A stretch of 35,304 bases of DNA from Candidatus Kapaibacterium sp. GTDB lineage: Bacteria; Bacteroidota; Ignavibacteria; Kapaibacteriales; UBA2268. The stretch is from positions 1-35,304 of the forward strand of contig JAQIDA010000101.1 of the NCBI GenBank assembly GCA_027858275.1, given 5' to 3'. The notes below the pieces were generated by a model. It was not told the DNA's origin, ran no database searches, and worked only from the letters and a program-made list of their open reading frames with translations. Below are positions 3-30,041 of this stretch, one piece after another; position 1 is the first letter of the stretch; each line of letters begins with the position of its first letter. The translations under genes were made by a program, and so were the position numbers.

Positions 3-3000
3 AGGAGCTATGCGACTTTTCATACTTTTGTCGCGGAAGTTACTGACGGATTGTTGCGAATCAAAGCCTCAGCTTCGGCAGGGGAGACCATGATTAACGG
101 TATATCAATTATTCAAGTAACTGAAGATCAGATTGCTCCTGCGCGTCCGACCGAGACGATTGTCACAGGCGGCTTCGACAGGATGATTGTCAATTGGGAC
201 CCGAACTATGAAGCGGATCTCACGGGATTTAATATATACCGAAAATTGGCGGCGGAGGAATTTATAAAATTGAATGCAGAGCCGTTGCTTTATACTATGT
301 ATATTGACGATGATGTTGAGGTTGGAGTTGAGTATTTCTATACGATGACGAGCGTGGATATTTGGGGCAATGAAAGCGAATTTTGTACTGAAATATCAGG
401 AATCGCCGTCGGAGATGAAGCCTCGCAGCTGCCGATTTATGAGCTGACCGTCACACAGGCAAATCTGGACAAACTCAATGAGGATTATCTCTCCGATGAT
501 TATGTTGACTGTGAATTTAAATACGGCGGCAAGACTTGGAGCAATGTGAAAATCCGCTATCGAGGCAGAACCACAAGGGGCTACCGCAAAAAAAATTATA
601 AAATCAAATTCGATTCCGAAGACCTTTTTGATAATATGAGAAGCTTGAATCTTACTTCCGAAATGGGCGATTTGAGTTTAATCAAAGATTTGTCAATCTA
701 CGAAGCGAAGAAATTAGCCGGGCTGCCGACGCACAATGTTTATCCTCTGCATTTGAAATTAAACGGAGAGTTTATCGGCGTTTACGTTCAGCGAGAGCAG
801 GAGGACGATGCTTTTGTTTCGAGGTTGGAACTTGGTTCGGGCAATTTGTATAAACCGCTTTATCGCGCTTATTCCAATCTTGAGACTCTCGATGATTTCA
901 AAAAAGATTACTCAAAAGAGACCAATCCGAACAGCGGATTTCAGGATATAATCAGCCTCACGAGATTTGTTAATGAAACGCCCGATGCTGAGTTATTCGA
1001 AGAGCTGCCAAGGAGATTCCATATTGATGAATTTTTCACATCTTTTGCGGTATTGAATTTATTCGCCGACTTAGATCATTCTTGGGGCAATTTCTATTTG
1101 TTCCGCAGTTTCGAGGATAATAAATGGCGCGAAATTCATTTCGATCACGATTACAGCCTGCATAATTATAATTATCCATTCCGATTATATACGAAGGAAG
1201 CAAGGGCTGCAGGGCTCTATCACTGGATTCTGAATAAACTCTATTACTCTGATGATTACCGTTGGTACTATTGTCACAAGTATGATGAGCTGTTGAACGG
1301 CGCGCTTAGAGAAGATTCCGTTGAAACCATGATGAAGCAGTTTTTTGCGGATGTTAAATTTGACGCGCATAGAGATATCTATAAAAATTCCCATGAGGAC
1401 AATGTCAGTTTCGACAATTATTTGTTCAGCATTCTCAGTAATGTTCGGAAGCGCGCGGCTTTGATTCGGGACAGTATTGCCGTTGAATCTCCGGCCGGCT
1501 ACGATCCCCTCTATAGATTGTTCGTAAATGAAATTATGCCGGACAACGATAAGGCTCATAAATCTTCGGATGAATTGTATCATCCTTGGATTGAGATATA
1601 TAATGATAATGTGATCCCTGTGGATGTTTCCGCGTGCAAGATTCAGATAGACAGCGGAGAAATGTGGACGATTCCGGCGGGCAGCATTGTCGATCCTAAG
1701 GGACATATTATTATATATACTGATTGCCCGGCCGAACAAGGGGGGCTTTTCAGCGATTTGACGATGCCGGAAGAGGCGAGTGCGATTACTCTATATTATC
1801 CCGACGCTGTTGAAATATGCGCAGAGATGGATTTTGATATTCCCGATACGGATCAGTCTTACGGACGGAAAGAGGACGGCAGCGCTGAATTAATTACGTT
1901 CAATCAGGCATCTCCGAATAAACAGAATTTTACCGAGCCCGGCAACTCGCTGCGAGGCATTGTCTTTATTAATGAGATTATGCCGGCTAATACTCAAACT
2001 GTTGCGAACAGCGACGGAGAATTTGAGGATTGGATTGAGTTGTATAATGCCGGCGTCGATATTGATATGTCCGGCTATTGGCTCAGCGACAACCGGGACG
2101 CTCCGTTCAAATGGCAATTCCCTAAAGGATATTATCTCAAAAGCAAATCCACGACAAAGTTTTTCGCTGACGGGCTGGGCGCGGATAATACTAACAACTT
2201 GAACTTCAAATTGAGTCGATCGGGTGAAGAAGTGCTGCTTACATCGCCGGACGGACTCGAAACTATTGATTATATTAAATTCCCCGAATGCGCCGACGAT
2301 GTATCCTACGGCAGAAACGGTGACGGCAGTCACGAATGGATTTCTTTTGCAGCCGCTACACCCGGCAAATCGAATATTCCGAAGACTGTTGACGGCAAGA
2401 TTTATATTAATGAGTTTATGGCGAAAAATTCCGAAACGATTCTCGATGAGAACGGGAACGCCGGCGATTGGATTGAATTATACAACCCGGATTCTGTCGA
2501 CAGAGATATAGGCGGTTGGTTCCTGACTGATTCCGATAATAATCTGAGCAAATGGCAAATTCCTGTCGGCAGCCTCATTGAGGCTTTTTCTTTCTTGTTG
2601 ATATGGGCGGACGGCGATCCGGAAGCAGGCGAATTTCATGCTAATTTCAAATTGGGCGGCACAGGGGAGCAGGTGCTTCTTGTCGGTCCTGACGGTGCGA
2701 CGATTATCGACTCCTTGAGTTTTGGAGTGCAGGAAGATGATATTTCCTACGGCAGATTTATTGATGCAGGAGCCGAATGGATGTTTTTTGAAGAGCCGAC
2801 TCCCGGCGCGACAAACAATGTTTATGATGAAAATGATGAACTTGTAGAAATTCTCTCTATTTCCCCGAATCCTACGGAAGATGTCGCGTATATTGAATAT
2901 AAAACTTTGACCGCCGGACCGGTGCGTTTATTTATATTCGATAATTCCGGGCGCAAAGTGTTCGAAAAGCTCTATGATCAGCTCCAAGTGGGCGAACATG

Positions 3001-4320: not shown

Positions 4321-6846
4321 ATGACTACCTTAACTTTTACTAAACGTTTTTTATCGCTCGTAGCACTAATGGGGATTGTCCTCATGGCTACAGGGCTCCA
4401 CGCTCAGAATTTGGTCAATGGCGCCGAAGGTGTTATTGTGAATTATGGAACAATTAAATTTGTCGTAACAGACGGTGAATTTCAAAATGAAAATGCCGAC
4501 GGTACTATCGCCACTATCTTGGATAATGATAACGGCACAATCGAATTTGCGAACACTGACAATGTGTTTGCAGGTACAAATGATATCGGCGCCAGTACGG
4601 CTATGCGTCTTGGCGGTTTAATGTTGTATTCTCTTGGAACGGCAACACAGAACATTCAAGGTCGTTATTATACTAATCTTGAAATGGCAAACGGTACCGC
4701 AAATACCGCTGTAGTGAAACAATTTGGTGCTTCTCTTGTTTATTGCTCAGGCGCTTACACTGCAGCCGGTGCTGATCGCGACTATGGTACAGGTGAATTT
4801 TCTTATGACGGAGCTGCTGCTCAGACTATCTTCGCTGAAGCCGGTGCTACAGGTAATGCTAACATCTATAACATTTTGAACTTTGAAGATGTCGGTGTAA
4901 AAACTTTGACTGCCGGTGAAACAAATAATGTTGAAACTTCTTCAACAATGCTTGCTTCAACAGTTGGCGGCGGTGTTGACATCCAAGGTATTTACCAGTC
5001 ATTAGGTAATGCAACTTTCGATCAGATCGCCAACGCCGGTGATTTGCTTGTTACCGGGGCCGGTGCTGAATACAACAATACTAACGGTGCAGCTACTTTT
5101 AACGCGAACGTGACTGTTGCAGCCGGTACGATGACTGCAGGCGGAAGCGGCGGTATGACATATAACACCGGACTTTTGGCAGTTAGTGCTGCAGGTGCTG
5201 TAAGAACAAACGGAACTGCAGGAGACGGATTAGGTGATATCACTTTCAATTCAACTACAACCGTAATAGGAACAAGTTTCTTGACTACTGACGGTGACGG
5301 TGACTTGATTGTTAATACCGGTACTGTAACTATTACTGACGGTACATTCGGAGTTACTGCTACCAGTGACAACGGTCAGGGTACTATCAACTCAGGCGGT
5401 ACATTAGCTCTTGCTGATGTAGGAGGATCCGATGCTTTGGGTCACGTGGATATTGCAACCGGGCAAACTCTTGAAAATACCGGTATATTCACTAATGCAA
5501 CAGCATATGCCAGCAGAACAAATATGCTTTTTGCTGATGATTCAGAAATGATTTATAACGGTGCAGGTCAGTCTATCGTTGGTACAATTGCTGCAAATCC
5601 TTATGGTAATTTGCAATCAATTGGCGCAACAAAAGCCGGTGCTGAAAATCATATTAATATTTCGAGTGATTTACTTGTAACAACTGAAGTGCTTGATATG
5701 ACTGCAGGCGCAGGCCCATTTACATTGACAATGCTTGACCATACAGGTGAGGCACTTTATACAGGTTCAACAGACGGTGTTGTATTTGAGGTTGCCGGTT
5801 CATTCCAGAGAATGTATAATGTATATGATGGAGGTGACGCTTACACCGGTGCTACACCATTAACATACAACAATGTTGACACAAAAGTCAGCATAACAAC
5901 ATTAGGCAGTCTTGTTGACTTGACACTGAATATTTTACCTGAAACGAATCCTGATCCTTCAGTTCCGGCATTTAGCTTAGCTACTGATGTGAATCGTAAA
6001 ATTACATTTTCATACAATAGTACAGCAAATGATTGGGTTTCTGAAGTAACTATGGGTTATAGATCAAGTGAAGAACCAACAGACGGAGACGTTCCGATCG
6101 CAGCCTTGCGTTTCAGAGAATATGAATCTCCCACCAACCCATCTCATAAAGTATCGACTAATGAGTTGATCGGCAGAAGCACACCAGCTGATTATACTGA
6201 TGGTTTTGCATGGATCTCTTTGGCAGGTATCGAACCGGGTACCGGCACTACGCTTGCTGAAGTTATTAACACTAATGACTTGTATTTGAGCGGTGCTCCA
6301 ACATCATTTATCACTATTAACCACGGTCGTTGGTCAAATCCTGCAACATGGGATGAAGGCATTCAGCCGAGTTCAAGTGACTTTGCTATTGTTCGCCACA
6401 ACGTTCATGTTGGTTTCCGTAGAACCTCATTTGACGGTGGTGTTGCAGGCGGTCAGAATGATGAAGGCGACTTTGCCGGAGTTACTAACGATCGCTTAGC
6501 ATCAGAGATCGAAATTATTGTACCTGATGGCACATATACAACTCCTGCTCTTATCTTTGGTAATAATGTCGGCGGCGCAACTGATGAAGAGTTACCTTTA
6601 ACTCCATGGAAACTTGCTGATGTCTCTACTGCTAACCTGACTAACTTGAATGCCAATGCTACAGGTACAGGTTTAGCCGGGTATACAAGTACAGTGTTTG
6701 ACAACGATGTTCGTAATAGTGCTACAGCAAACTATTATCACGGTTTGATGTTCTTGAACACAAACACAGCAGTAACATTGCTTACACTGACAAACAGTGG
6801 TGCAATGGCTGTTGGTGAAGATGTTACAGTAACAGTTGGTGAATAA
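4321..6846 (+). CDS. Secreted T/G/A/N-rich protein (beta-helix-like region, beta-sandwich, G8-like motif); putative major filament subunit
   Basis: AAGGA RBS; Sec signal ending LHA|Q; low-complexity beta-solenoid-like sequence; G8-like HGRWSNPATWDEGIQP; ends VTVTVGE; no T9SS CTD. The filament role is inference. Confidence 0.8.
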   Translation: MTTLTFTKRFLSLVALMGIVLMATGLHAQNLVNGAEGVIVNYGTIKFVVTDGEFQNENADGTIATILDNDNGTIEFANTDNVFAGTNDIGASTAMRLGGLMLYSLGTATQNIQGRYYTNLEMANGTANTAVVKQFGASLVYCSGAYTAAGADRDYGTGEFSYDGAAAQTIFAEAGATGNANIYNILNFEDVGVKTLTAGETNNVETSSTMLASTVGGGVDIQGIYQSLGNATFDQIANAGDLLVTGAGAEYNNTNGAATFNANVTVAAGTMTAGGSGGMTYNTGLLAVSAAGAVRTNGTAGDGLGDITFNSTTTVIGTSFLTTDGDGDLIVNTGTVTITDGTFGVTATSDNGQGTINSGGTLALADVGGSDALGHVDIATGQTLENTGIFTNATAYASRTNMLFADDSEMIYNGAGQSIVGTIAANPYGNLQSIGATKAGAENHINISSDLLVTTEVLDMTAGAGPFTLTMLDHTGEALYTGSTDGVVFEVAGSFQRMYNVYDGGDAYTGATPLTYNNVDTKVSITTLGSLVDLTLNILPETNPDPSVPAFSLATDVNRKITFSYNSTANDWVSEVTMGYRSSEEPTDGDVPIAALRFREYESPTNPSHKVSTNELIGRSTPADYTDGFAWISLAGIEPGTGTTLAEVINTNDLYLSGAPTSFITINHGRWSNPATWDEGIQPSSSDFAIVRHNVHVGFRRTSFDGGVAGGQNDEGDFAGVTNDRLASEIEIIVPDGTYTTPALIFGNNVGGATDEELPLTPWKLADVSTANLTNLNANATGTGLAGYTSTVFDNDVRNSATANYYHGLMFLNTNTAVTLLTLTNSGAMAVGEDVTVTVGE

Positions 6847-6941: not shown

Positions 6942-9002
6942 ATGCTTAAAAAAATGAAAATATTGTCAAATATATTGATCCTTATAGGATTTATTCTCCT
7001 TGCAGTTCAGCAGCCGAGCAATGCTCAGCAGCTGAACAGCACGGGGAATATTATCAATAAGGGCAAGATCATTGTCAAACAACAGGCAGTGATTGAGCAA
7101 GCGTCAATAGACGGTGAAGTTGAGTTTGTTTGGGATCGAGACGGAATGAGACAATATATACCTCAAATTTCTTATGAAAGCGTAAAATTTTCGGGTAGAA
7201 CACCAAAGTATTTGAGTGATACTACTAAAATTCTCACGGCACGCAAAAAATTCGTTTCGGAAATAACTGAAATCATAATGGTTCCGCAATCAATGATCTA
7301 CTCGCAAGGGGTTACCGAGCATGAGGCTCAGATTAATCCTGCCTATGGATACGGAACGGTAAAACTCAACGGACTGAATGCTCAGGATATATCGGGCAAA
7401 GGCGGCTTCAAAGTGCTTGAGCTTGACAATTGGTCAGGTGCGGACGTCATCAAAGGGGGCGGTTTTGTGGTAAACACAAAATTAGAACTAACCCGCGGCG
7501 AGATGCGCAACGACTCGGTCAGTAATTTCCTGATGAAAGATTCCGCGTTGATAGTCCGTAACGACGAAGGATCACTGAGATACGAGGCGAACTTCGAAGA
7601 CCATATCGATGTTCACTATATCGGATCGAACACTTACTCAATCGCAACCGGCGGAGAAATCCCGAGCGATCCGGCAATCTTGCAGACAATGCAGGTGAGG
7701 AATCGCGGCGGCGTAGATTTGAGCATGGACGTTACAGTAAACGATACACTGCTTGTCGCAAGTCATGTAAACACTGAGCCGACGGCAGACCTCAAGGTTT
7801 TGACCTATACATCGGCAAAGAATCCAATATATGAGGAACATGACGCAGAAGTAATCGGCAGTCTCAGACGAACAAATCTCAAAACAGACAGTTCGCAGAT
7901 ACTGTTCAACAATCGTTATACTTATGCACTGTTTGAAAATGCGGCAGCGGCAGGAGCAGTGAAAGAATTGACTTTCAGAGTCAAACCACTGGAATGGCCG
8001 ATCTTCACATTGGACGTAGACAGAGTAAAAAGATATTTTGCCATAAGCGCGCGCGACGAAAATTCCTCAGACCTGAGCGCTGTTCCGAATATGCAAGTCG
8101 GCTACGGCTGGCGTCAATTCGATGACAGTGTAGAGGTGGATGAGTCGTTGATATTGCGCAATAGTTTCGCAGAACTCGGATTCGAGCGATGGGTAAACGG
8201 CGAATGGGAATTTATAGAAAGCTCGCAAATGCCTGCTCAGCTGGACGGAGCTCTGGGCTGGGCTTATAGCTATGCGACAATAGTAACGGAATTCGGCGAA
8301 TTCGCTGTTGGTTTGAATACAAGTATGCCTTTGCGCATGAGAGCCATAGCGTTTTTGGAAGGCGCGTATCGCAAGGAAATGATGTCGGATGAACTCCGCA
8401 TTAAAAAGCTGATACCGACCACCCCGGATAATTCATATCCTTATAATCTCGATCCTACACGGGCTTCGATTGCGGTGATCGCGATCCCTGATTCGGTAGT
8501 TGATTGGGTGGTTCTCGAATTTAGATCCTCTCTGACCGGCGAAGCCTTGTTCTATAAGACCTGCTTTGTCAGAACAGACGGAACGTTGGTGAACCAACAA
8601 GGTGACGAGTGGATACAGTTGGATGCATTCAGAAGAAATGCTGAATTCTACGTGGCAGTGCGTCACAGAAACCACTTGAGCATAATAACAGAGAGCAAAA
8701 TGGAGTTTGTAACAGACTCCAATTTGAACGTAATTGATTTTACTAATCCGTCATTAGTACTCGGCGGCTCAGCCTCCTTGAAGCTAATCGGCAGAAACTC
8801 ATTGGGCAAGTTGATATTCGCAATGCCCGGCGGGGATACTGACGGCAACGGAGAAATCAATCGTGACGATCTGGAAAGAGCATGGATACAACGTGACAAC
8901 GAAGGATATTTGAGATCAGATATCCACATGAGCGGAATTATCAATACAAGAGATTTTAACTATATCTGGAACAATCAGGGGCGTACAAGCCAGATCAAAT
9001 AG
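6942..9002 (+). CDS. Secreted protein paralogous to the N-terminal part of the 841-aa protein, with a C-terminal FLEG/RHRNHL domain and dockerin-like EF-hand pair
   Basis: Signal ends SNA|Q (start could be 6954). EVIGSLRR..FNN.YT..LT...P..VKR aligns with EVAGSFQR..YNN.DT..LT...P..VNR in the 841-aa protein. C-terminus has AFLEGAY, VVDWVVLEFR, VRHRNHL, GDTDGNGEINRDD and SDIHMSGIINTRD. Confidence 0.8.
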   Translation: MLKKMKILSNILILIGFILLAVQQPSNAQQLNSTGNIINKGKIIVKQQAVIEQASIDGEVEFVWDRDGMRQYIPQISYESVKFSGRTPKYLSDTTKILTARKKFVSEITEIIMVPQSMIYSQGVTEHEAQINPAYGYGTVKLNGLNAQDISGKGGFKVLELDNWSGADVIKGGGFVVNTKLELTRGEMRNDSVSNFLMKDSALIVRNDEGSLRYEANFEDHIDVHYIGSNTYSIATGGEIPSDPAILQTMQVRNRGGVDLSMDVTVNDTLLVASHVNTEPTADLKVLTYTSAKNPIYEEHDAEVIGSLRRTNLKTDSSQILFNNRYTYALFENAAAAGAVKELTFRVKPLEWPIFTLDVDRVKRYFAISARDENSSDLSAVPNMQVGYGWRQFDDSVEVDESLILRNSFAELGFERWVNGEWEFIESSQMPAQLDGALGWAYSYATIVTEFGEFAVGLNTSMPLRMRAIAFLEGAYRKEMMSDELRIKKLIPTTPDNSYPYNLDPTRASIAVIAIPDSVVDWVVLEFRSSLTGEALFYKTCFVRTDGTLVNQQGDEWIQLDAFRRNAEFYVAVRHRNHLSIITESKMEFVTDSNLNVIDFTNPSLVLGGSASLKLIGRNSLGKLIFAMPGGDTDGNGEINRDDLERAWIQRDNEGYLRSDIHMSGIINTRDFNYIWNNQGRTSQIK

Positions 9003-9218: not shown

Positions 9219-10517
9219 ATGAGAACAATGATTAAATACTCAATATTGATTGTTGTCTTCTCCATAGTGATGTCCCAAAACGCGGTATCTCAACGTACAG
9301 ATACACTGGTGACGGTATGGATAACTAATGTTGAACGTCCGGCACCTGATGAGCTTCAGTTTGATTTGCTTCTGGCAAGTAATTCCGAGGAGCTGATCTA
9401 TTGGGCAAACGGTACATTTGATATAGCATTCGCCTCAGGTTTTGTGATTGATCCTACAACAGTGTCTCTCAGTTTAGAAGCTGTTCAGGATGTGATTTAT
9501 CAACCTTTAGCCGGCGATCCGATTCCCACGGATACCTATTATATGACTCCAAGAATATTCCCCGGCAGATTCAGTATAACGATCGTAGGCCCTGAACTCT
9601 ATGTGGACACCTATCCGATATTGCCTTATGACACATTGCGTCTCGGCAGATTCAGTGTAAAAACCACAGACGGAACGAATCTAACTTCAAATTTCATGTG
9701 GCTGAATCCTATCTATTATTATCAGGCATTGGCATACAAATTAGACAAACCCTTGATTTTGCCCCCGTCGAATATATTGGCGGAAGTAAATCATAATATA
9801 GAATTTTCTGATATAAACACGCTTTATACAGCCGAATACAAGGCTCAGGACATCGACAAACCAGAATTCATACTTGATTATTTCAATGTGGAATATATTG
9901 GTAAGATGGTGATGCAGATAGATTTCGCCACAATTCAGGAAGCATATAACTATGGCTTTATTATTACTCGCGCCTATAAGTACAGGTCGACTGATGACGA
10001 AGCTACGTTGGATTATAAAGATACAATCGCTCATTACAGAATCGGTCATAACAGATATAATCCTGACTTGGTAGGACTCGGCACCCGAAAACCGGGCAAA
10101 GTCTACGCAACTCTGTATGACACAGTAGACCACAGACAGTTGACCTATTGTTATGAGCTCTTGTACCAAGATTGGGATTGGAATATTAATTTCCTCGCGA
10201 GAGATTGCGAGTTTGTCCCGCACGCTTTGATCACCGAAGCATTCACAGCCCCGTCGCCGTTCAGCCACGAGACAACGATCACATACAGAGTTGAGGATAA
10301 TGTACTAATGTCCGCAAAAGTATATGATCTGCGCGGCAAGCTGGTCAGCACAATATTTGAGAACAAAGAACATCCTCCGGGATACCATACGGTGAAATAC
10401 GTAATTCCGGATTTCGCCTCAACGGGAGTATATAACATATTCCTCAGAGCGGTGCCGGTCGATGATCCGGACGTAGAATATTCTCAGGCAGTTATAAAAA
10501 CGCAATATATAAAATAA
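9219..10517 (+). CDS. T9SS type A sorting-domain protein with N-terminal cohesin-like beta-sandwich
   Basis: AAAGGA RBS; signal ends AVS|Q; N-terminal ELQFDLLL..GTFDIAF..LGRFSV; Ig-like linker (F.T.QE..NYGF.I.R..Y.Y.L...D.D); CTD APSPF..ETTITY..VYDLRGKLV..GVY. The cohesin-like call is tentative. Confidence 0.75.
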   Translation: MRTMIKYSILIVVFSIVMSQNAVSQRTDTLVTVWITNVERPAPDELQFDLLLASNSEELIYWANGTFDIAFASGFVIDPTTVSLSLEAVQDVIYQPLAGDPIPTDTYYMTPRIFPGRFSITIVGPELYVDTYPILPYDTLRLGRFSVKTTDGTNLTSNFMWLNPIYYYQALAYKLDKPLILPPSNILAEVNHNIEFSDINTLYTAEYKAQDIDKPEFILDYFNVEYIGKMVMQIDFATIQEAYNYGFIITRAYKYRSTDDEATLDYKDTIAHYRIGHNRYNPDLVGLGTRKPGKVYATLYDTVDHRQLTYCYELLYQDWDWNINFLARDCEFVPHALITEAFTAPSPFSHETTITYRVEDNVLMSAKVYDLRGKLVSTIFENKEHPPGYHTVKYVIPDFASTGVYNIFLRAVPVDDPDVEYSQAVIKTQYIK

Positions 10518-10545: not shown

Positions 10546-12495
10546 GTGAACAGAAAATTCGAATATATAAACACAAAGATGAATAAGATCAAAGCGATTG
10601 GCGCTGCTCTTGTTCTGTTGTTGTTTGTCGGAAGCAATCTGTTCGCCGATGTGAAGATATTATATCCTCTCAACGGAGAAATCCTGAGAGCCGGCGAGAC
10701 TACAGAAATCCGCTGGGAAAGCATTCCTAATTCAGTATACACAGTAAAGTATTCAACAGATGAGGGTACGACTTGGGAGTTGATCGCGGAAGATATAACA
10801 GCAGACAGATACAACTGGTCGGTTTTGACGGATATATTAGATGTTAAATTCCGAGTAGAAGAACGCAGCACAATCCCTCCGAGACTTTTGCGCCGGATGG
10901 AAGACGTTCACGATCATAATGTTTATTCAGTAGCGATGTCTCCTGACGGACAAAAAATGATCACAGCAGGCCGCGACATGAGAGTAAAAATATGGAATAT
11001 CAGCGATCTGACATTAGACGAACAGATAGTCACAGGCGACAGCGGGTCAGTCTATGACGCTATGTTCGCGGGCAACAGCGAGTCAATAATATATGTCAAA
11101 GAGAACGAATTGGTATACAGAGATTTAACAGACGACAGCGAAACAACGATGACAGGATTGTTTACGGATCTAATCAGATCAGTCGCATATCATAATGAAA
11201 AAGATATTTTTGCCGCCGCGTCATACGACGGTAATATGAAGATATTTACAAAAGCCGGATTTACTGAAATCGCATCGTATTCAACGGGTGCGGAGTCAGA
11301 ATTATACAAAATAGTCTTCTCGCACAGCGGCGATTTGGCGGCATTCGCGGGCGGCGCGGGCATAATCTATATATTTGATATACAGAACAACACAGTTATT
11401 GGTCAGATGACAGGTCACGGCGACGTAACGAATAAATTGGTATGGTCTCTGGCATTTTCGCAGGACGATCAATCATTAGTTTCATGCGGAGTTGACGGCA
11501 CGGTAAGGGTCTGGGATTTGACCACATTCGAAGAAAAAGTTTTAATTGACGCGCACAGCTTCCACATTCGCGCAGTTGATTGGCATCCTACTGAAAATAT
11601 GATATTATCCGCTTCTTTGGATAAATATATTAAACAATGGGATCCGACTGACGGTGCAAAAATCAGTGAATCGATGCAGCACGGCGGTCAGGTGTTAGAC
11701 GCAATGTATTCGTCCACGGGCGACACAATCATAAGTTGCGGTCGCGATCACGCAATGAATATATGGAAGAATATCCAAACGGATTACAGCGAGGACAGCG
11801 TTGATTGTCTCGTGAGATATCCTGCGACCGTTTCATTGCCGCACATTGTAAGTGCCGCGGACAGAAAAGTAAAAATTCCGCTAATCTTTGAATCAAATTT
11901 GATTCCTCCGGGCGGCGAAAATAAGTATTTCGACGCTGAAGTCAGCATTGAAATTCCTTCAAAATTATTAGATATATCCCTTCAGGGCGAACATTATATG
12001 CTGTTCAATGATCCTGACACAGTGAATATCAGCTTAAAATCAATAATCTTAGACGGAGCGATTCTGACCCTCGACGGTTTGACGATTGCCGGTATCCCGA
12101 ATATAGCTGATTTGAAGATATTAAACATAGAAACTACAGATGAAAATTATTACATCATAGATAAAATTGACGGTTCGATACGAGTACCCTCTGATTGCAT
12201 AGGAGATTCTTTTCGCGGCGTAAGCTTTGCTTCGGAACCGCTTTCAATGAAACTGAGCCCTGCTCCGGTTTCGTCAACAGTCAAAATCAGTATGAATTTG
12301 ATCGAAGAGGGCAGGCACAAATTAGAACTAATCAATTTGCAAGGCGAGATAATAAGTGTTTTGGAAGTCGCGGATTATAATCCGGGACCGCATATAACAA
12401 CAATTGATATGTCGGATTTTGCCTCGGGACATTATTTCTTGAGAATTGTCGGTCCGACTCGTTCCTTAACCGGATCATGTGTGATTTCGCGTTAA
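10546..12495 (+). CDS. Secreted WD40 seven-bladed beta-propeller protein with Ig-like N-terminus, cohesin-like domain and T9SS CTD
   Basis: GTG start with AGGA RBS (alternative ATG at 10579); signal ends LFA|D; YPLNGE..IRW..YSTDEGTTW; seven WD repeats (e.g. GH..VWSLAFSQD..SCGVDGTVRVWD); ATVSLP..VKIPLIF; CTD LSPAP..INLQGE..SGHYFLRI. Confidence 0.88.
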   Translation: MNRKFEYINTKMNKIKAIGAALVLLLFVGSNLFADVKILYPLNGEILRAGETTEIRWESIPNSVYTVKYSTDEGTTWELIAEDITADRYNWSVLTDILDVKFRVEERSTIPPRLLRRMEDVHDHNVYSVAMSPDGQKMITAGRDMRVKIWNISDLTLDEQIVTGDSGSVYDAMFAGNSESIIYVKENELVYRDLTDDSETTMTGLFTDLIRSVAYHNEKDIFAAASYDGNMKIFTKAGFTEIASYSTGAESELYKIVFSHSGDLAAFAGGAGIIYIFDIQNNTVIGQMTGHGDVTNKLVWSLAFSQDDQSLVSCGVDGTVRVWDLTTFEEKVLIDAHSFHIRAVDWHPTENMILSASLDKYIKQWDPTDGAKISESMQHGGQVLDAMYSSTGDTIISCGRDHAMNIWKNIQTDYSEDSVDCLVRYPATVSLPHIVSAADRKVKIPLIFESNLIPPGGENKYFDAEVSIEIPSKLLDISLQGEHYMLFNDPDTVNISLKSIILDGAILTLDGLTIAGIPNIADLKILNIETTDENYYIIDKIDGSIRVPSDCIGDSFRGVSFASEPLSMKLSPAPVSSTVKISMNLIEEGRHKLELINLQGEIISVLEVADYNPGPHITTIDMSDFASGHYFLRIVGPTRSLTGSCVISR

Positions 12496-15375: not shown

Positions 15376-18300
15376 ATGAAGAGAATTGTTCTATATATTA
15401 CTTTGTCGTTGTTTGCGAGCTTCCTAATTAAATCGGAAGTATCGGCACAGACTACTGTTACCATGAAGTCCGGTTCGGGTTTATATATTAGCCCCGGCGC
15501 GACCTTCCATGTTAACGGCGGTTTGGTCAATGAAGGTACTATAACAGGCAATACCGGTAGGCTGAATGTTAGCGGTACTTATACGAATGAAGGAACGCAC
15601 AATGCTTCAAGTTCGACTATTTCTATTGGCGGAGACTTTGTTGATAATGCCACTTTCAACGTCGGGACTTGTACGCTGATAATGAACGGTCCGTCTTCTC
15701 AGACGATAACCGGTTCTGCAACAAATTCATTCTATGAATTATCAATAAATAAGACCGGCGGAATTCTCTATACTGATAAAGAATTGACAATCACTAAATA
15801 TTTGAGATTATTGTCGTCGCACAAGTTTGATATAAATGCTAATGATTTGATAATCGCTGAGACCGGCGAGATTTATTCAGATAACGCCGACGGTCAATAT
15901 TTCCATTCGGATAAATATATTGTAAGTTCACAGAGTTCTTCTACTGCCACAAGCGGGTATTTGATCCGACAGATACCACAAGGGACTCCCCCGTCACCTG
16001 ACGGAGTTGCTTATGTGTTACCCATTGGTAACGTAAATGGTTTTGGTTCTGCAATTATCAGATTTTTGCCTGATAAAGTTACTTTTTCGGCTAATGCTGA
16101 TTTGAGAATATTGCCGGTACCGGAAGAACATCCTAATTTAATTGTATCAGATCGTTCATTGCTTAAATATTGGCGTCTTGAACATAATAATATTACAATC
16201 GCAGACAGTGGCACGCATCTAAAATTCTACTATGATCTTTCAAATTCGGAAGTTGGTGGAGGTTCGGAAGGTAACTATATACCGTTATTTTGGGCAAATC
16301 CGGGTTGGATCACCCAAACAGGTGTCGGTAGCAGTCTAAATAGTACAACTAATGAAATACTATCCGAATTCTCGCCTTTAATCGCAGGAACTATAGAGGG
16401 TGATTGGACAGCAGGAGAAATTGAAGCTGCCGTTGCGGTTTATTACAGTCTTGGCGGACCTTGGAGTGTAAACACTTCATGGTCAAACGGTGGATATGGT
16501 CAAGCTCCTGCAGCTTTCGCTCCTTCTTCAAGTTCAGATATTGTTAGAATTGGTGAGGGGGAAACAATTACGATTAATTCAACCACAGCTATTGTCGGAA
16601 CAGTAACTGTGCAAGTTAACGGCAGACTGGATTGTGTCGGCGAAGCAGATCTTAGTGCCTTAGAATTTACTCTCGAAGAGGGAGGAACTCTCGGAATTGG
16701 CAGTGCTTTAGGAATAACAGATATTAACGGTGCTGACAAAGCCGAAGGGAATATTCAATCAACAGAGGTAAGAGATTTTAGCTCAGGTGCCGAATATCGT
16801 TATACCGGAACTTTAGATCAGATTACCGGTTTAGGTCTGCCGCTGACAGTCAGCAGACTCGTTTGTGATAAGACGAGCGGAAACTTGTTGCTGGCAAGGA
16901 ACACACAAATATCATCTTCATTTCATATTGAAGACGGAGTATTTAACGATAACAATAACAAGTTAGACGGGCAAACAGCCAGTCGTACTTTCACTATGAA
17001 TGGCGGTACGTTTATTGCTCACGGTCGTTTCCCCTTAAATTATGAACCTCCGACATTTAATGCCGGGACTATTTCATTCCAAGGAACCGGTGATTTGAAT
17101 ATTCCGTCAAGCGAATCCGCTTCGGAAACTTTGGCAGGGGTTGATCAATATTTCAATCTTGATGTCGCGGGAAACAGGGGTTATATAACAAGTGTTATAT
17201 TCATGCCGCAGGGTGAAGTAAGAATTGGCGGAGCATTGACTCTTGCTGACCTCGGTTGGACTTCAACCTTCCAGGGTGTGGATCATGTTCTAACAGTGAA
17301 TTCGACAATTCATTTTAACGGCAGCGGCGATCAGTCTATTCCGAGATATACCGATGATTTTCCCAACGGAGATGATTATCAAATAAAATATTATAATTTA
17401 AAAAGTTCAGGAACCGGAACTAAAAGTCTTATCGAAGCTGATTGTGATGTTTTCAATGATGTGATTATCGAAGGTGCTACTTTGCATGCCAATTCTTTCA
17501 ATATGAAAGTTCTGGGAGATTGGACAAATACTTCCGGCACATTTACTCATGATAATCAGCTGGTGACTCTATATACTCCTTCTGAAGGTATTGAAAATAC
17601 TATTACAGCCGGCGACAGTCCGTTTTGGAATTTGGATATAGGAAATGCAGCTGACGAAGCAACCGGAGACTATCGTTTGCTTGATGATATGACCATAGAA
17701 AACGGCTTCCATATATTGAATGCCAAAGCTGAATTGTTGATGAATTCATCAACATTTACCGTCAAAGGAACTTGGCTCAACGAAGGTACTTTTACTCCGG
17801 GTACGGGAACTGTACTTTTCAACGGCCTCGCGGCTAATCAGCAGATAACAAAAACAGGGACGGAAACTTTTTATAATCTTAAAATAGACAATTCAGGTAA
17901 TGTACTTGTTCCGGTCGGTTGTGATGTGGACGTTGCAAATGACTTAGAATTTGTTGCCGGCAACCTTGATGTTCGTACCAACGATCGTATAGTTTCTGTT
18001 TATAATAACACTACCAGAACCGGTACCGGACATGTTGACGGTCATTTGAGATTCAATGTCCCTGAGGGAGCAGTCGGCACAAAAGACTTGCATATTGGTA
18101 ACGGTACTGATTATTCACCTGTAGCAGTTGAATTTACAGGCACTGACGGAACAGCAGGATACTTGGATGTCATAACAAATGATCCCCAGACAATAGGTAT
18201 TCCTACGGATTTCAATGTGGCCAAATATATTAACCGACAATGGGAAATGTCTGTCCCTACAAATAGTGATTTTGTGTTGGGGACGAGAACCTATAATGCT

Positions 18301-21300
18301 ATATTGACTTATTTGGATGCAGATAAGGTCGGTGGTGCAAATCCTTTATTGTTGGAAACTCAGATATATGACGGTGCTTGGAACGCGACACAAGTCGGAA
18401 CAAGAACAGAAACACCAAATACTTGCCAATCTGTGGGCAACACAGTTATAGGTACATTATTCCTCGGTGAGCCTAATATATTCAATTTATACAGTATTTC
18501 AGACGGCGGCAATTGGTCAAATTTTGAATCATGGTCATCTGAAGGATACGGCAAAAGCAGCGTCCCTTCTACTTTCCCGATTGACGGTAATTCAAGATAT
18601 TATATAGGTGACGACAAAACAGTTAATCTCGGCTCTAATTTTACTATTAATGCCGGACGCGAAATTGTGGTTCAAGTGGATGGTAGTCTGGATTGTTCGA
18701 CAAACACAATCGACGGCAGCGGAACATTCACACTACAAAGCGGCAGTAGTCTTCTCATTGGTTCGCCTGACGGTATTGCGGCTTCCGGTGCAACGGGAAA
18801 TATCCATACTTCAACACGTTTGTTCAATGGCGTCGGCAACCATAATAGCGGCAATTTTGTTTATAACGGTGCTTCTGATCAGTTTACCGGTGATGGTATA
18901 CCGGATACTATTTCAACAATTGAAATCAATGCGCCCGGATATACTGTTGAGATGTCAAAAGATATTTCTGTAGCGGATACTTTGAACATTATTGATGGTA
19001 CATTAGATGTTTCAACATCAAATTACAGTATTGATATTTCCGGCGATTGGGAAAATACAGGAACATTTACTGAAAGATTAGGAGCTGTTACTTTCAACGG
19101 CAGCGAAGACCAACTGCTCAGAAATATAACCGGATACGGAGAGACATTCTATGACTTGGTTGTCAATAAATCAAACGGAGTTCTCGAATTAGATCAGAAC
19201 TCCGATATTTTGATTTCAAATCAATTGTCATTAACAACCGGATATATTGACGCTCGGTCGAATGAGGAATCTGTGACTGTTCTGGACGGTGCGACTGTCA
19301 GCCGGACTTCCGGCCATGTTGACGGCGAAATGAAAAAACATGTGCCGGCAGGAGCGACAAGCTCTGATATCGTATATGAAATTGGTGAAGGTTTGAGTTA
19401 TACACCTGCAAATCTTGGTTTTGTAGGAACCGGAGGAACTGCAGGCTATGTCAGAGTGAGTTCGGAGCCGGATAAACACGATGATTTTAGTGAAGATAAT
19501 AATTTGGATCCTGCCAGAGTTGTTGAACGACACTGGGATCTGTCTGCTGACGGTGACTTTGATCTTGGGCAAGACAGATCTATTAATGCTACTGTTACAT
19601 TTTTGAATCCTGATGATATTAACGGCGGGGCGGATCCCGAGAAATTCGTTATGAGATATTGGGCGGAAACTGTATGGAATTCAGCTGAGACCGGTTCTTG
19701 GACTGACACTACTACTCAAGGAACGAGTATTAGTTCTTTATGTGATATAATGGTAGGTCCGACAGGTCCACTACTTACGGTATATTATTCCAGCACATCA
19801 GGTTATTGGGACGATCCGAATACATGGTCTACCGTAAAATACGGCGGTGTTCCGGACGGATCCACACCGAGGAACAACGATATTGTTTTTATTGGTGATG
19901 GTGATCAAGTAAATTTAGGAGAAAGCAGAAGCATCCGATCAGTTACCGTTGAGAGATCACCCGGCGGTACAGGAAGCTTATTCTTATCTGATTCTGTGCT
20001 TTCCGGAGCACAATTTGTACTGAAGACCGGTGGTGTGTTAGGCATTGGTTCAGCTGCCGGCATAACTACAGGCACAACCGGAAATATTCAAACTAAAATC
20101 AGGAATTTCAATCCCTGGACACACAATTCCGGAAATTATATATATAACGGAACGGGCGACCAAGTTACAGGAAATGCATTACCTGCTGAATTTGCGACTT
20201 TAGAAGTAGATAACAACAACGGTACGGTTACTCTGCAAAGCTCAATAGGTTTGAGCTCTGATCTGACTTTGACGGATGGTATTCTTAAACCGTCGTCATC
20301 GGCAGTTGATGTTAATTTAGCGGGAGATTGGATTAATAATGCGTCTGTTTCGGCTTATGACGCTACCTCCAACAAAGTAACATTTGACGGTGAATCAAGC
20401 AGTACGATCAGTGGAACTTATGCAACAACGTTTTATAATGTTGATCTGGATAAATCGACATATAATCTCTCCTTAGAGACACATGCAACAGTTGCAAATG
20501 AATTTACATTTATCTCTGACGGTTTGCTTGTTCTCAATTCAAGTGATTTGACTATCGGCACAGCCGGCAGCATTGGCGGATCATCCCTCGGCAGTTCGAG
20601 AATGGTTCAATCTGACGGTACTGACACAGGCGGAAGAATTATTAAATTGTATTCGGGCTCGGGTTTGAACGCTTTCACGATTCCGATTGGTGTCGGCTCG
20701 GATTATAACCCTGCAGAGTTGAATGTTGCCGCTACTTTTGACGCCGGAGCTTATGCAGCTCTCAGACTGGTATCGGCTGTTCATCCGGATGCGATAAGTA
20801 CTGAAATGTTATCCAAATATTGGAATGTCAGTTCGGAAGGGATTTCAAATAATCTAGACTCTGCTAATTTAAAATACTATTATCTTAGTTCTGATGTTAA
20901 CGGAACTGTCGCGAATTACATGGCTGCGAGATACGCAAATGATGCTTGGGAAACTAACTTAGGTACATCGCGTGACGCGACAACTTCACCGATAACCGTT
21001 TTAGGTTATACTGAAGCTTTGGATGGTGATTGGACAGCCGGTGAAGCTACCGCGATATACAAAGGCAGAATCTTTTATAGTAGGGCCACAGGTAATTGGG
21101 GAGATGCGACAAGTTGGTCAAACGTGTCTCATTTAGGTTCGCCGTCAGCTTATACACCCGGAACTTTTGAGTCTGATACTGTGTTTATTGATGCCGGGCA
21201 TGTAATTGATTATAATCTTACATCCGTAACCGTAGGAGCTGTTACAATAGGCGGCGCTGAAACAGACGACGGCGATTTAGAATTTATACCCGATCTTAAC

Positions 21301-24300
21301 AAGACAATGACAATATTGGGTGATTTAACTATAGAATCTGACGGTTTCATGGATCAGGCCGGCAACGGCGGTCGAATTGATACTCTGTATTTACACGGCA
21401 ATCTTACAAATAATAATATAGGAACAGATGCCGTTGATTTGCGCCAAGGTGATTTGAGTTATACCATTTTGGAATTTGTAGGTGAATCAAGTTCTACAAT
21501 TTCCGGGCCGGGGAAATATAGGCTTTCAGGTGTTCATATCGATAAAGAAGCTATTACGGATATAGTCTATAATGAAGCAAGTGAATTCTCTGTTGCTTTG
21601 ACTGAAGCTGTCGGCGGTGATGATGATTTGGACAGACCTTTCAAATTGTTGACGGGTGTATATTGTCATAACAATGACGGCAGAGCCTTACTTGAAAGAG
21701 ATGAATTACCTTTAGCCGGTTTTGTTATGGGAGTCAATTCCGGAATTGATATTCGAAAGGGTGAATGTGCCTTTCTTGATGAATTTGAAACTAATACAAA
21801 CACTTTAGTTAGTATCAGCGGCGGTAAACTTGTTGTAGGAAATGGCCAAAATGAAGATTTCTTGTACGGATCCGGCACTAAGTATACTCAAAGCGGAGGT
21901 GAAGTTAACGTTTATGCGGCCTTCTCGGTCGTCAACACAACTTCTTCGATTAATTTTGATATGTCGGGCGGTTTTCTCACTGTGGTTATCGGAGATCATA
22001 GTAATGATGATGAAGGTCATATTGGATTTGATATACGAAGTCCGAGTTCGACCTATACTCAAAGCAGCGGTACAATAACGCTTGTAAGTTATTCTTCAAA
22101 TAAAGATTATGAAGTAAAAGCCTCAACAGTAAATGTAACCGGCGGAACTTTACAGATTGGTAAAGACGGTTTTTATCTTGGAGGTACAGGTGCTTCAATA
22201 GGTATTGGCAATGACAAACCGACTATATGGGATTTAAATATACGTTTTACTATGATGGGCGGTACTACTTATCGATCAATGATTATAACATCTCCTGTAT
22301 TGTATGTTCTGAATAATGTTGATATTCATCATTACGGATGTTTGGATCTTAATACTCTTTCTCTGTCTGTAGGCGGCAATTTTATAAACCGTGGCATGTT
22401 TACTTCAGACGGGTTGGGTTGGAACTCCGGCATAGGAGCAAAAGAAATAATTTTCAAGGGTGACAAAGATGTGATCGTCGCGACACAAGATTTTGTCAAC
22501 GACAACCCGGACGGAGCGACATTTGTTAACGAAGCATTCTACGATATTACCGTAGATAAGACCGGTGGTTCGATATCTCTCGGTGATTTTCCGTATTCTG
22601 ATATGATTGTCAGAAATAATTTAACATTCGCGGATAATAATGTTGCTAATATTATTTCCCGAACCAATGACAGATACGTTCATGTGGATCCTCAGGCAGC
22701 CGGTGATGCAGCGGCTGTCCAAAGAGTAGGTCTTGGATTTGTAGACGGCAGACTTAGAAAAGAAATTCCGTCAGATGACAGTTATACAAAATTTGAAATT
22801 GGAGCAGGAGCGGTTTACAGACCTGCGATATTGGAAATCCTTGGTACAGGAGGCAGCAATGCGCAGGAAGATGTGGACTTTATGGTTACGGACAGCAATC
22901 CGGCCAATATCCTCGAAAACCAAATAAATTTGGATTTGGACTTGAACATTCAATGTTATTGGACATTCTCTAATCCTGATGTTTTTGACCTTGACGGCAG
23001 GACATTTCATTTAACTCTTCAGTTTGACCCGAAGGATATTCCATCGGGTGGAAGTTGGGCTACATTAAATCAGTATTATGCCTCGTCAGTACCTTATTCG
23101 ACAACACAGATTGGTTTGCGAACCGACACTAGCACGCAATCACTCAGCAATTCTTTGTTGGGGGATTATATCTTGGGTGAAACTATCGGCTTTAATTATT
23201 TCTCAATTGCCGACGGCGACTGGAACGATGAAAACACATGGTCGAAAGAAAGTTACGGAGGACTTCCTGCGCCCGAATATCCTGACGGAGAAAATGATCG
23301 TGTTTATATTGGTGACGGAAAAGAAGTCATATTAAATAAAATTGTAAATACCAGAGGAGTTATTGTCCAGTCTTCAGGCGGGGGTGGTCAGCCGGGTGCT
23401 TTGTACGGCAAAGTTGACTCTTGGCTGCGCGGATTATCATTTATCCTTGAAGACGGAACAACTCTGTCTACTGAGCATTCGAACGGAATTACCGAGGCAG
23501 GTTCAGAAACCGGTTCAATTCGTACTGTTGCCCGTGATTACCGCTACTCACATTATAAATATACCGGCAAGGGGCAGAATCAATCAACAGGTCAGGGACT
23601 GCCGGACAGAATTATGTCACTGACGGTTGATAATACAGGTGTTGACGGCCAGAACACAGTAACTTTGACAAAGGAAATAGATTTTGTCGAAGATCTAAGC
23701 ATACTCAACGGTGTCTTTGATACAGGGTCTAAAGAGATTAAAATCGGCGGAAATTTCCTGATGGAAAACAGAGACACAAACAGAACAGAGTTTGAGGCAA
23801 GAACCGGAAAAGTAGTTTTCGAAGGTGATCAGGAGCAAATTGTTACAGTCAATGATCCGGGTGATTTAGAGTTTGAGCGTTTGATGTTGAATAAAACCGG
23901 CGGTGCTTTCCGTATGGCAGGAAATGACGCTGATGCAGACATACTTGTCAGAAGTTTGTTGAGATATGAGGCGGGTAATATAATAAATGTCGACGTCAGA
24001 ACGAATGACAGAAAACTAATCATTGAAAATGAAAATGGTGCTGAAATAGTGAATACCGGACTCGGCTATATTAACGGAAAACTGCAGTTGACAATACCCC
24101 CTGGTGAGTCCTCAACCACTTATTCAATTGGTTATTGGGACAATTATATGCCAATGACAATGACTATGGTAGGGACAGGCGGCATCCAAGGTCCTGTTAC
24201 AGCTGTGGTAGATTCCCTTGATGGTGATGATGAAGCGATTGTCAACAAGAAAATTGATCTGTATAGGAGTGTCCGGAGATTTTGGCAGGTTGAAGGTTTA

Positions 24301-29403: not shown

Positions 29404-30036
29404 TTAATCGACCAATCGATTCTTGAGAGCGTAGTGCGTGATTTCGGAATTGTTTTTCATGCTCATTTTTTCGAGGATACGAATTCTGTACGTACTGATA
29501 GTATTGATGCTGAGAGAAAGTTCGTTAGCTATATCCGTCGCTGTTTTGCCGGAGGCAATCAAGCACATAACTTGGAATTCTCGATCAGACAGAGTGTCGT
29601 GCAAAGCCTTGTCGCCGCCGGCTTCTAAGTTAGAGGCTAAAAGCTCAGCTAAGAAAGCCGATATATACTTTCTGCCTTGTGAAACTTTTCTGATAGCTTC
29701 GATCAACACATCAGCTTCGGTTTCTTTGTTGACATACCCGGCCGCTCCTGCTTTGAGGACACGCAATGCGTATTGTTCTTCGGGATAAATAGTAAAGATA
29801 AGAACCGGCAAATCCGGGCAGATAGTTTTGATTTCTTTTAAAGTGTCCAGACCGTCTTTGCCGGGCATAGAAATATCAAGAATAACTACATCATATTTCT
29901 TGACTTTGATTTGATCAATAAGTTCGAAACCGTTGCTTGCTTCACCTGTGACTACGAGGTCCAAGGTCTCGTCAAAAATTTGTTTTAAGCCTTTTCTTAC
30001 GACTGCGTGATCGTCTGCTATAATAATTTTTATCAT
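29404..30036 (-). CDS. NarL/FixJ family response regulator (REC + LuxR HTH)
   Basis: IADDHAVVRKG, ILDISMPG (phospho-Asp), GAAGYVNK, LSDREFQV..IA.ELSLS..TISTYR.RI..K. Confidence 0.97.
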   Translation of the reverse strand: MIKIIIADDHAVVRKGLKQIFDETLDLVVTGEASNGFELIDQIKVKKYDVVILDISMPGKDGLDTLKEIKTICPDLPVLIFTIYPEEQYALRVLKAGAAGYVNKETEADVLIEAIRKVSQGRKYISAFLAELLASNLEAGGDKALHDTLSDREFQVMCLIASGKTATDIANELSLSINTISTYRIRILEKMSMKNNSEITHYALKNRLVD

Positions 30037-30041
30037 TTTAT

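Follow-up and report, generated by a model that had tools for sequence, protein, structure and literature searches.

We analysed a 35,304-nucleotide stretch of Candidatus Kapaibacterium sp. (GenBank assembly GCA_027858275.1, contig JAQIDA010000101.1, positions 1 to 35,304 of the forward strand; hereafter the window), in which an open reading frame (ORF) at 4321-6846 encodes an exported protein of 841 amino acids (aa). This ORF and the other features described below lie on the plus strand unless stated otherwise. We propose a beta-helical fibre at the cell surface in which neighbouring genes each supply a section of the helix, cut exactly at rung boundaries, and the 841-aa protein provides the middle section, a reading to which we give about an even chance of being right. 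The partners of the 841-aa protein would be a 3877-aa giant (15376..27009) and a 686-aa protein (6942..9002). The best-supported joint places the C-terminal rung of the 841-aa protein on the N-terminal rung of the 686-aa protein, and the terminal rungs look like docking surfaces. An earlier note on this DNA had suggested that open C-terminal rungs stack on the N-terminal rungs of the next subunit, a form of beta-solenoid complementation; in the modified form of an 841-aa C-terminus on a 686-aa N-terminus, this idea gains support from conserved chain ends, natural gene fusions, complex prediction, a cysteine pattern and synteny.

The 841-aa protein is a member of an unannotated, Sec-exported family. 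Searching 1.84 billion representatives exhaustively with phmmer returned 186 homologues at E ≤ 0.001, 151 at E ≤ 1e-10 and 60 at E ≤ 1e-30, mostly 700-870 aa long; a word-indexed search with the same protein found one relative of similar length and none among longer proteins. No family in Pfam or NCBIfam matched the giant, the 841-aa protein (both at E ≤ 0.1 in Pfam) or the 686-aa protein, and 0/60 tested members of the 841-aa family matched any Pfam family at E ≤ 0.01. The family alignment comprises 124 full-length homologues, and C-terminal ends were counted in 149. Residues 1-28 (4321..4404) form a signal peptide with a putative cleavage site between LHA and Q, placed from the translation and the family columns, in which the -1 position is Ala, Ser or Gly in 124/124 rows and the +1 position is Gln in 123/124. 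Gln at +1 is described as a phylum-wide 'Bacteroidetes Q-rule' in passages of two sources (PMC5837995, PMC10653852), so this residue is common across the phylum and not peculiar to the 841-aa protein. The family occurs in 80 related loci, almost all from metagenome-assembled genomes of Kapaibacteria, Ignavibacteriota, Bacteroidota and Chlorobiota. About 15 of these loci stand in bins labelled 'uncultured Hyphomicrobiales' (L003, L005, L008, L011 and L014 among them), with one more labelled Desulfobulbaceae and one Bradyrhizobiaceae; these labels are probably wrong, since the cluster is the same as in Kapaibacteria bins.

Chains of this family stop at a fixed place. Among the 149 homologues, 90 end exactly at G[EQDNKH], 9 at [CS][EQDN] and 18 with 2-4 extra residues, so that 117/149 terminate 0-4 residues from the same Gly; 7 others have an end like that of the 686-aa protein, and 25 are fragments or variants. 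The tail consensus is N.G.[IV].N.G.[IL]E[IV]G followed by a polar residue and the carboxyl terminus, the last residue of the 90 exact ends being Q (31), E (23), D (14), N (14), K (6) or H (2). A terminal [VI]GE, which the earlier note had singled out, is therefore conserved in its end position and its Gly-polar pair but not in a strict Glu. In the window protein, the tail rungs span residues 808-841 (6742..6843; AlphaFold2 (AF2) model and family columns) and end in LTNSGAMAVGEDVTVTVGE-COOH, our proposed donor face. AF2 places five short strands at residues 808-839 with a predicted local distance difference test score (pLDDT) of 83-95, and the family columns are strongly conserved at G808 (121/123 rows), N825 (106), G827 (117), N831 (112) and G840 (102/121), followed by the polar last residue.

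The same tail closes the giant. A MAFFT-aligned hidden Markov model (HMM) of the last 32 residues found no match, the giant's tail included, as short tails align badly; an ungapped, end-anchored matrix of 18 residues, built from the 90 exact tails with the window protein left out, performed differently. Across 25,467 six-frame positions of the window, the giant's last 18 residues (26953-27006, ending ..NESEIENNGLIEIGE-COOH) ranked first with 30.3 bits, the mature N-terminus of the 686-aa protein ranked second with 15.0 bits, and all other positions scored at most 3.4 bits. That an N-terminus gives the second-best match to a tail matrix makes the putative donor and acceptor rungs alike. In the whole incomplete assembly (2.68 Mb, 379 contigs, 11,762 ORFs of at least 60 aa), the giant again had the best C-terminus, the next scoring 4.7 bits. 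Over the 80 loci, a sample not fully independent of the matrix, scores of at least 10 bits were reached by 54/78 841-type and 34/41 giant-type ORFs, and by 0/73 686-type, 0/67 432-type, 0/25 WD40, 0/3 943-type and 2/2,521 other ORFs. The proposed resemblance between the ends of the window's 841-aa protein and its giant is partial: both finish in [VI]GE, but the 841-aa tail is atypical, scoring -2.7 bits ungapped against 30.3.

Natural fusions show what follows the tail when two of the genes become one. Six representatives of 1451-1581 aa align first with the 841-aa protein and then with the 686-aa protein from its residue 28-33 onwards. The best tail match is internal in 6/6, and the signal peptide is absent at the joint, so the fused chains are not a read-through of two genes. 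In four of the six the 686-type rung begins 1 residue after the tail, and in the other two 2-6 residues after it by BLAST. A further protein, P0094 (794 aa), joins an 841-type N-terminal helix (residues 5-541) to the 686-type X-dockerin-like end (residues 572-790) described below.

Complex prediction points to the same pair of faces. We modelled residues 29-300 of the 686-aa protein with residues 640-841 of the 841-aa protein, each with its own alignment. Three runs gave interaction prediction scores from aligned errors (ipSAE) of 0.84, 0.02 and 0.90 (median 0.84), and the best of three controls reached 0.26; 58/80 solved complexes and 2/110 mismatched pairs reach the mark applied, a calibration that is approximate here, own alignments having been used. 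Contact agreement between runs was at least 2%, and partner pLDDT was at least 71. The predicted interface brings residues 29-47, 49 and 58 of the 686-aa protein against residues 778-788 and 820-841 of the 841-aa protein in a parallel register, with 686 residue 43 beside 841 residue 837, 39 beside 831, and 33 beside 825. As a model, this supports binding of the 841-aa C-terminus to the 686-aa N-terminus.

The acceptor side is conserved in both families. The mature 841-aa protein begins with a rung at residues 29-47 (4405..4461; Q-N-L-V-N-..G.I.N.G.I.F), our proposed acceptor face, in which N33 is kept in 90, G37 in 87, N41 in 97, G43 in 98 and I45 in 97 of 124 rows. In the 686-aa protein, a signal peptide (residues 1-28) precedes an N-terminal rung at residues 29-47 (7026-7082), with N39 and G41 present in 50/50 rows and I43 in 41/50. 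An N.G.I rung had been claimed for the mature N-termini of all three proteins; it holds for the 841-aa and 686-aa families but not for the giant, as judged from matrix scores and from position, its VNEGTI lying about 30 residues into the mature chain. The wording that one and the same rung opens all three chains was rejected as too strong, a matrix derived from 686-type N-termini scoring neither the giant's N-terminus nor that of the 841-aa protein, which reaches only 1.9 bits.

Two readings of the tail alone fare poorly against these observations. In the first, [VI]G-polar-COOH would be a new C-terminal sorting or processing signal for a dedicated export or attachment machine, an alternative raised in the earlier note. 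The motif does sit at the extreme C-terminus of two to three protein classes from one gene cluster, and its carriers have no type IX secretion system (T9SS) domain, neighbours at 3-3101 and 10546-12495 having one. The motif is, on the other hand, internal in the six fusions, its canonical form occurs in the 2.68-Mb assembly on the giant only, its last residue varies (Q, E, D, N, K, H), and no candidate sorting enzyme is conserved beside it; we regard the signal as disfavoured and highly improbable. In the second, the last rung would be an ordinary C-terminal cap, kept for folding or stability and bound by no partner. Terminal rungs of solenoids are often conserved, this motif is restricted to homologous families, and the joint with the 686-aa protein is a predicted one, all of which would suit a cap. 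Such a cap would leave unexplained the chain stop at one Gly, the fusion joint at which the motif is followed by the first rung of another protein, and the covariation of tail and N-terminal Cys set out below, and we consider it very unlikely.

Under the divided-helix reading, every piece would be exported through Sec, and signal peptidase would expose an N-terminus that starts with a rung (Q..L.N..G.I.N.G.I). The giant and 841-aa chains would stop directly after a rung (N.G.I.N.G.IE[IV]G-polar-COOH), and this open C-terminal rung would stack in parallel on the N-terminal rung of the next piece, so that the solenoid continues over the chain break. The likeliest order would be giant (in some relatives a mini protein of about 110 aa), then 841-aa, then 686-aa protein. 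Having no donor rung, the 686-aa protein would tie the fibre through its X-dockerin-like end, perhaps to a T9SS-anchored 432-aa protein. We infer that the giant comes before the 841-aa protein, that the fibre is anchored in this way and that it lies on the cell surface. More broadly, and only tentatively, three to four consecutive genes may encode the pieces of one beta-solenoid rod of more than 5,000 residues that are exported apart and reassembled in fixed order, with breakpoints that open by fission or close by fusion while the fold is unchanged, some joints locked by disulfides, and a tie to the cell by X-dockerin and a T9SS-anchored receptor.

The mini proteins are a third kind of tail carrier. 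These small secreted proteins (ORFs of 131-184 aa) immediately precede the 841-type gene where a locus has no giant in that position (L027:9573-9974, L030:9597-10007, L064:9598-9993 and L074:6308-6727, and further L073 with its ORF end at 9874, L015:171-707 and L031:1015-1569). Each has a signal peptide, a giant-like Q.LVN.GA.I.I N-terminus and the shared tail, ending in ..IG[KR]P or ..VEVGPP. They may substitute for the giant as first piece or cap.

Some lineages carry cysteines at both ends of the 841-type chain. In seven representatives (P0009, P0013, P0016, P0019, P0026, P0044 and P0129) and seven loci (L002, L004, L007-L010 and L013), a Cys replaces the Gly at -2 of the tail or the residue one position earlier, and in every case a Cys also directly follows an N-terminal G.I.x strand. 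By alignment columns, tail and N-rung Cys coincide in 4/7 rows against 1/117 (Fisher 1.8e-5, uncorrected for relatedness), the remaining 3/7 Cys-tail rows having been shifted by one rung by MAFFT. A looser table of any Cys near either end was discarded (p = 0.05 and 0.08), being confounded by unrelated N-terminal Cys of the ..NATCG.. type. In 5/7 Cys-tail members these two are the only Cys of the mature chain. Combining the register of the predicted complex with the two-residue offset between the 841-type and 686-type N-terminal motifs, the N-rung Cys would adjoin tail positions 840/841. The giants of L002, L004, L007 and L010 also have a Cys at -2, the sole one in their last 400 residues; giant N-termini have no Cys in about 110-120 mature residues in the genomes of L002 and L004, and one in that of L007. 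In Cys-tail loci the mature 686-type proteins are free of Cys, and 0/74 686-type proteins have one at residues 29-60. The pattern is compatible with an intramolecular seam, with joints between 841-type chains, or with joints between giant and 841-type chains.

A second tail class, ..[IV]G[IVN]C-x, is two residues longer; its carriers are five 841-type proteins (P0002, P0079, P0121, P0126 and P0136) along with two giants, from L071 and L072. In the five 841-type proteins it accompanies a Cys near residue 73-85 (..PGTV.W..C..), and two more Cys of the helix lie about 44 residues apart. This class may represent a different disulfide geometry of the same joint.

Several results weigh against a helix divided among genes. 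The tail of the window's own 841-aa protein is a divergent variant with two inserted residues, ending in VGE, and the tail matrix and the 80 loci are not fully independent. The giant's N-terminus differs in type and is detected by neither the tail matrix nor the 686-type N-terminal matrix, and a search for longer forms found no fusion of giant and 841-type protein, which is itself weak evidence. One of the three complex runs scored 0.02, and cousins of the true partner pass the complex test too, so that the N-terminal rung of the actual partner is not singled out. With Cys on the 841-type tail and none on the 686-type protein, the junction between these two is not the disulfide one, and a chain with only two Cys is most simply read as holding an intramolecular bond. 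Finally, no T9SS domain was found in the giant or in the 841-aa and 686-aa proteins (no Por_Secre_tail, TIGR04183 or type B match in Pfam or NCBIfam), which leaves their passage over the outer membrane unexplained; a T9SS route for the three was dropped as unsupported.

To these points belongs a structural one that favours self-closure, in which the 841-aa tail would stack on its own N-terminal rung to give a closed, circularly permuted repeat unit and no fibre. Three tapirin rows of the VIA comparison (model ranges 28..838, 44..841 and 46..841) cover the tail and the N-terminal helix in a single rigid-body superposition, which suggests that the modelled tail is in line with the protein's own helix, rows with the tail being 2/50 in one VIA listing and 1/50 in another. 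The monomer model is confident (predicted template modelling score (pTM) 0.82, tail pLDDT 83-95), but monomer prediction offers the tail no other rung. Self-closure would also suit the 5/7 Cys-tail members whose mature Cys are confined to the two ends, and the collinearity of the 841-aa protein with the 'second half of unit + head of next' of the giant. The six fusions, in contrast, have the tail face taken by a 686-type rung and keep the N-terminal motif all the same; giants and mini proteins of about 110 aa share the tail, and their ends cannot plausibly meet; and the giant's tail Cys has no matching N-terminal Cys of its own in 2/3 genomes read. The fusions and the Cys shared by the giants argue that self-closure is not the whole story, and as a full account we hold it to be unlikely.

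The Cys lineages also bear on a homopolymer, as put forward in the earlier note, in which 841-type chains would stack head to tail into a fibre of variable length, started by a giant or mini protein and ended by the 686-aa protein. Donor and acceptor motifs do occur on one 841-type chain. The Cys lineages have two Cys donors (giant tail and 841-type tail) and a single type of Cys acceptor (the 841-type N-rung), a set that fits a giant followed by several 841-type chains and a 686-type protein, with disulfide-locked joints between the 841-type chains; the absence of the tail from all 73 686-type proteins suits a terminator. The fusions, however, fix the 841-686 joint at 1:1, nearly all loci have one copy per gene (a tandem 841-type pair occurs only in L024), and the acceptor rungs of the 841-type and 686-type proteins differ in spacing, as the low score of the 686-type matrix on the 841-aa N-terminus indicates. 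We judge the homopolymer quite unlikely.

The AF2 model of the 841-aa protein, built on the 124-row alignment (pLDDT 83.5, pTM 0.82), contains the domain order proposed in the earlier note, namely a beta-helix, a sandwich, a G.W..P.TW motif and short tail strands. The N-terminal right-handed beta-helix spans residues ~30-300 (4408..5220), with pLDDT above 90 over most of residues 30-220 and low confidence or disorder at residues 275-336. Residues 44-300 compare in VIA with right-handed parallel beta-helices of Vag8, pectate lyases and tapirin at Z 10-11.5 (7akv_G, Z 11.3, root-mean-square deviation (rmsd) 4.4, 205 aligned; 5w6h_A, Z 11.5, 246 aligned; 1ee6_A, Z 10.5), and PATR, AIDA and Pertactin are found on its structural neighbours in the Atlas. 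At E ≤ 0.001, neither the 841-aa nor the 686-aa model matched any PDB entry in Foldseek. A second run of short beta-helix-like strands follows at residues 336-480 (5326..5760; DSSP strands), and then, from EVAGSFQR, a region at residues 490-657 (5788..6291) with eight long strands and pLDDT mostly above 90 in the model, which fits a beta-sandwich by its DSSP strand pattern.

The head motif FITINHGRWSNPATWDEG...IVRHNVHVG occupies residues 662-700 (6304..6420), with GRWSNPATW at residues 669-677 (6325-6351). In the 124 rows G669, W671 and P683 are invariant, and R670, P674, T676, W677 and D678 are at least 90% conserved. The G8 domain (PF10162) has a G.W..P.TW-like start followed by a beta-helix, and the segment had been called G8-like; the likeness stands for the motif but does not extend to a Pfam match to G8, which was found in neither the 841-aa protein, nor the giant, nor any of 60/60 family members.

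The motif also links the protein to the giant. The giant has a signal peptide, a half-unit and then seven head motifs with units of about 430 aa, and it finishes with a head half-unit. Its internal repeats match one another at E 3e-34 to 2e-7 (BLASTP between segments), and the 841-aa protein has one G.W....[ST]W motif against seven in the giant (aa 361, 1045, 1476, 1906, 2614, 3073 and 3560). Two giant units, aa 353-1036 and 1898-2605, are 684 and 708 aa long against the usual ~430, with an insert of ~250 aa separating the head half from the second half. The 841-aa protein gave no BLASTP match to the giant (best E 0.28), and as a single sequence against a profile of four giant units it aligned over 26 residues at the motif with a probability of 2%. 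With the 124-row family profile, hhalign matched residues 360-598 to giant unit columns 165-393 (E 3.4e-5, probability 72%, 213 columns) and residues 662-700 to the head of the giant's seven units (E 7.3e-5, 39 columns); the first ~330 residues and residues 700-800 had no alignment to the giant unit. These profile matches suggest a remote homology between residues 360-598 and the latter half of the giant repeat unit, and the two aligned segments are collinear with the giant. As a free repeat unit of the giant, the 841-aa protein has limited support: the likeness is at profile level, in two collinear segments, and does not show in BLASTP or, beyond the motif, in the single-sequence alignment.

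The 686-aa partner is modelled with higher confidence (AF2, pLDDT 92.4). Its least confident structured part is residues 31-40 (mean pLDDT 77), with values above 93 further on. Residues 30-350 form a beta-helix (VIA Z 11-12), followed by a sandwich and, at residues 462-686 (8325-8999), an X-module and dockerin-like end. In VIA and Foldseek comparisons this end superposes on structures of the CipA X-module and type II dockerin from C. thermocellum (3kcp_A, Z 10.4, rmsd 3.7, 150 aligned; 5g5d_B, Z 10.1, 147/156 aligned), with a Foldseek probability of 1.00 and TMt of 0.52-0.58. By sequence, Pfam Dockerin_1 matched 3/51 members of the 686-aa family, the window copy not among them; the 686-aa family profile met a dockerin at E 0.66, and neither this profile nor that of the 432-aa family found anything significant among PDB sequences. 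The assignment of the 686-aa protein to the end of the chain, proposed in the earlier note, agrees with its lack of the tail motif, in place of which it has the X-dockerin-like module.

Downstream lies a 432-aa protein (9219..10517) with a T9SS-type C-terminal domain, the conserved third gene in 71/80 loci and a candidate surface anchor. Por_Secre_tail matched 11/54 members of its family, the window copy not among them, and Pfam Cohesin matched 0/54; Atlas clusters for the protein contain Cohesin in 29-32% of members (scores 0.90 and 0.84), which makes a cohesin here an Atlas lead. A frequent fourth gene (10546..12495) encodes a WD40 beta-propeller (Pfam WD40, E 4e-37) with a T9SS sorting domain (TIGR04183 Por_Secre_tail, E 2.6e-5). 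Homologues in the 80 loci number 74 for the 686-type, 71 for the 432-type, 41 for the giant and 25 for the WD40 gene, and the usual order on one strand is giant, 841, 686, 432 and often WD40. A tail-bearing ORF ends at most 3 kb upstream of the 841-type gene in 42 of the 61 loci whose upstream DNA reaches at least 1.5 kb. In the window, the giant is placed after the WD40 gene and a 943-aa gene, not before the 841-aa gene.

That 943-aa secreted protein (12541-15372), between the WD40 gene and the giant, has homologues at 3/80 loci. It contains at least six internal repeats of ~110 aa (..LDVEGT..LGAPSS.P......SQW.LWL.E..D.F.L.K.SDG..), and its C-terminal ~120 residues give a weak BclA_C match (E 1.2e-4, under the Pfam cut-off). 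At the window's edges, a 5'-open ORF (3-3101) encodes a CotH kinase domain, three lamin-tail domains and a T9SS Por_Secre_tail and recurs in 0/80 loci, and an 836-aa ORF open at its 3' end (32795-35302) has no Pfam match and adjoins a pair of PAS histidine kinase and LuxR response regulator genes (29404-32492, minus strand).

A conserved unannotated cluster (giant, 841, 686, 432 and often WD40) is thereby defined in Kapaibacteria and Ignavibacteriota-like bacteria. It gains a first functional handle in the predicted interface of 841:820-841 with 686:29-47, with a natural disulfide reporter in some lineages, and a cellulosome-type X-dockerin-like module is placed in a Gram-negative lineage that has the T9SS. 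Real joints would mean that a beta-helix tolerates division between rungs, piecewise export and reassembly in a defined order, which would offer a design principle for self-assembling protein rods and a way to handle fibres too long for a single gene or export event. It would amount to a new construction mode for a bacterial surface fibre, and to natural split-protein complementation in a solenoid.

Chaperone-usher pili and the type V pili of Bacteroidota are built from incomplete subunits completed by a terminal segment of a neighbour, and are polar with a terminator subunit. Unlike these donor-strand pili, in which a single strand enters an Ig-like fold and a chaperone or protease is needed, a whole solenoid rung would stack here, and no chaperone, usher or lipoprotein signal was seen. 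The protein shares with autotransporter and two-partner secretion (TPS) passengers (Ag43, pertactin, FHA, Vag8) and with tapirins a right-handed parallel beta-helix with N.G.I-type rungs (VIA Z 9-11.5); each such passenger is one chain, capped at its ends, and the 841-aa protein has no family-level sequence match to them. No beta-barrel translocator, TPS domain or ESPR was found in the 841-aa protein or the proteins of 3-27009 with Pfam and NCBIfam. Curli, built of CsgA and CsgB, have a distinct subunit at the cell-proximal end. They consist of secreted beta-solenoid subunits stacked end to end, as described in part of PMC10192328, but as small five-repeat subunits in a nucleated extracellular amyloid, unlike the large folded multidomain proteins with one defined junction rung seen here, to which they have no sequence relation.

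Passages of two sources on bactofilins (10.1101/617639, PMC12448750) describe these cytoskeletal filaments as beta-helices joined end-on through terminal windings. The proposed fibre would resemble them in the end-on stacking of right-handed beta-helix rungs, bactofilin polymerisation involving no nucleotide. Bactofilins are cytoplasmic, made of one small protein and joined non-polar, head to head, whereas the pieces here are Sec-exported, unlike one another (3877, 841 and 686 aa) and would meet in a polar C-onto-N joint; the bactofilin (DUF583) Pfam domain matched neither the 841-aa protein, which has a signal peptide, nor 60 family members. The end of the 686-aa protein superposes on a cellulosomal X-module–dockerin such as that of CipA, which binds the cohesins of anchoring proteins; unlike that system, the host is a Gram-negative member of Bacteroidota/Ignavibacteriota with no cellulosome, and its 432-aa neighbour belongs to the family lacking a Cohesin match in Pfam. 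Our searches of the literature, supplements aside, found no secreted solenoid split between consecutive genes at rung boundaries with natural fusions and, in some lineages, a Cys pair at the joint. End-on beta-helix stacking, terminator subunits and X-dockerin anchoring are thus known from other systems, and what would be new here is the split of a helix at rung boundaries over consecutive genes, in an unannotated family.

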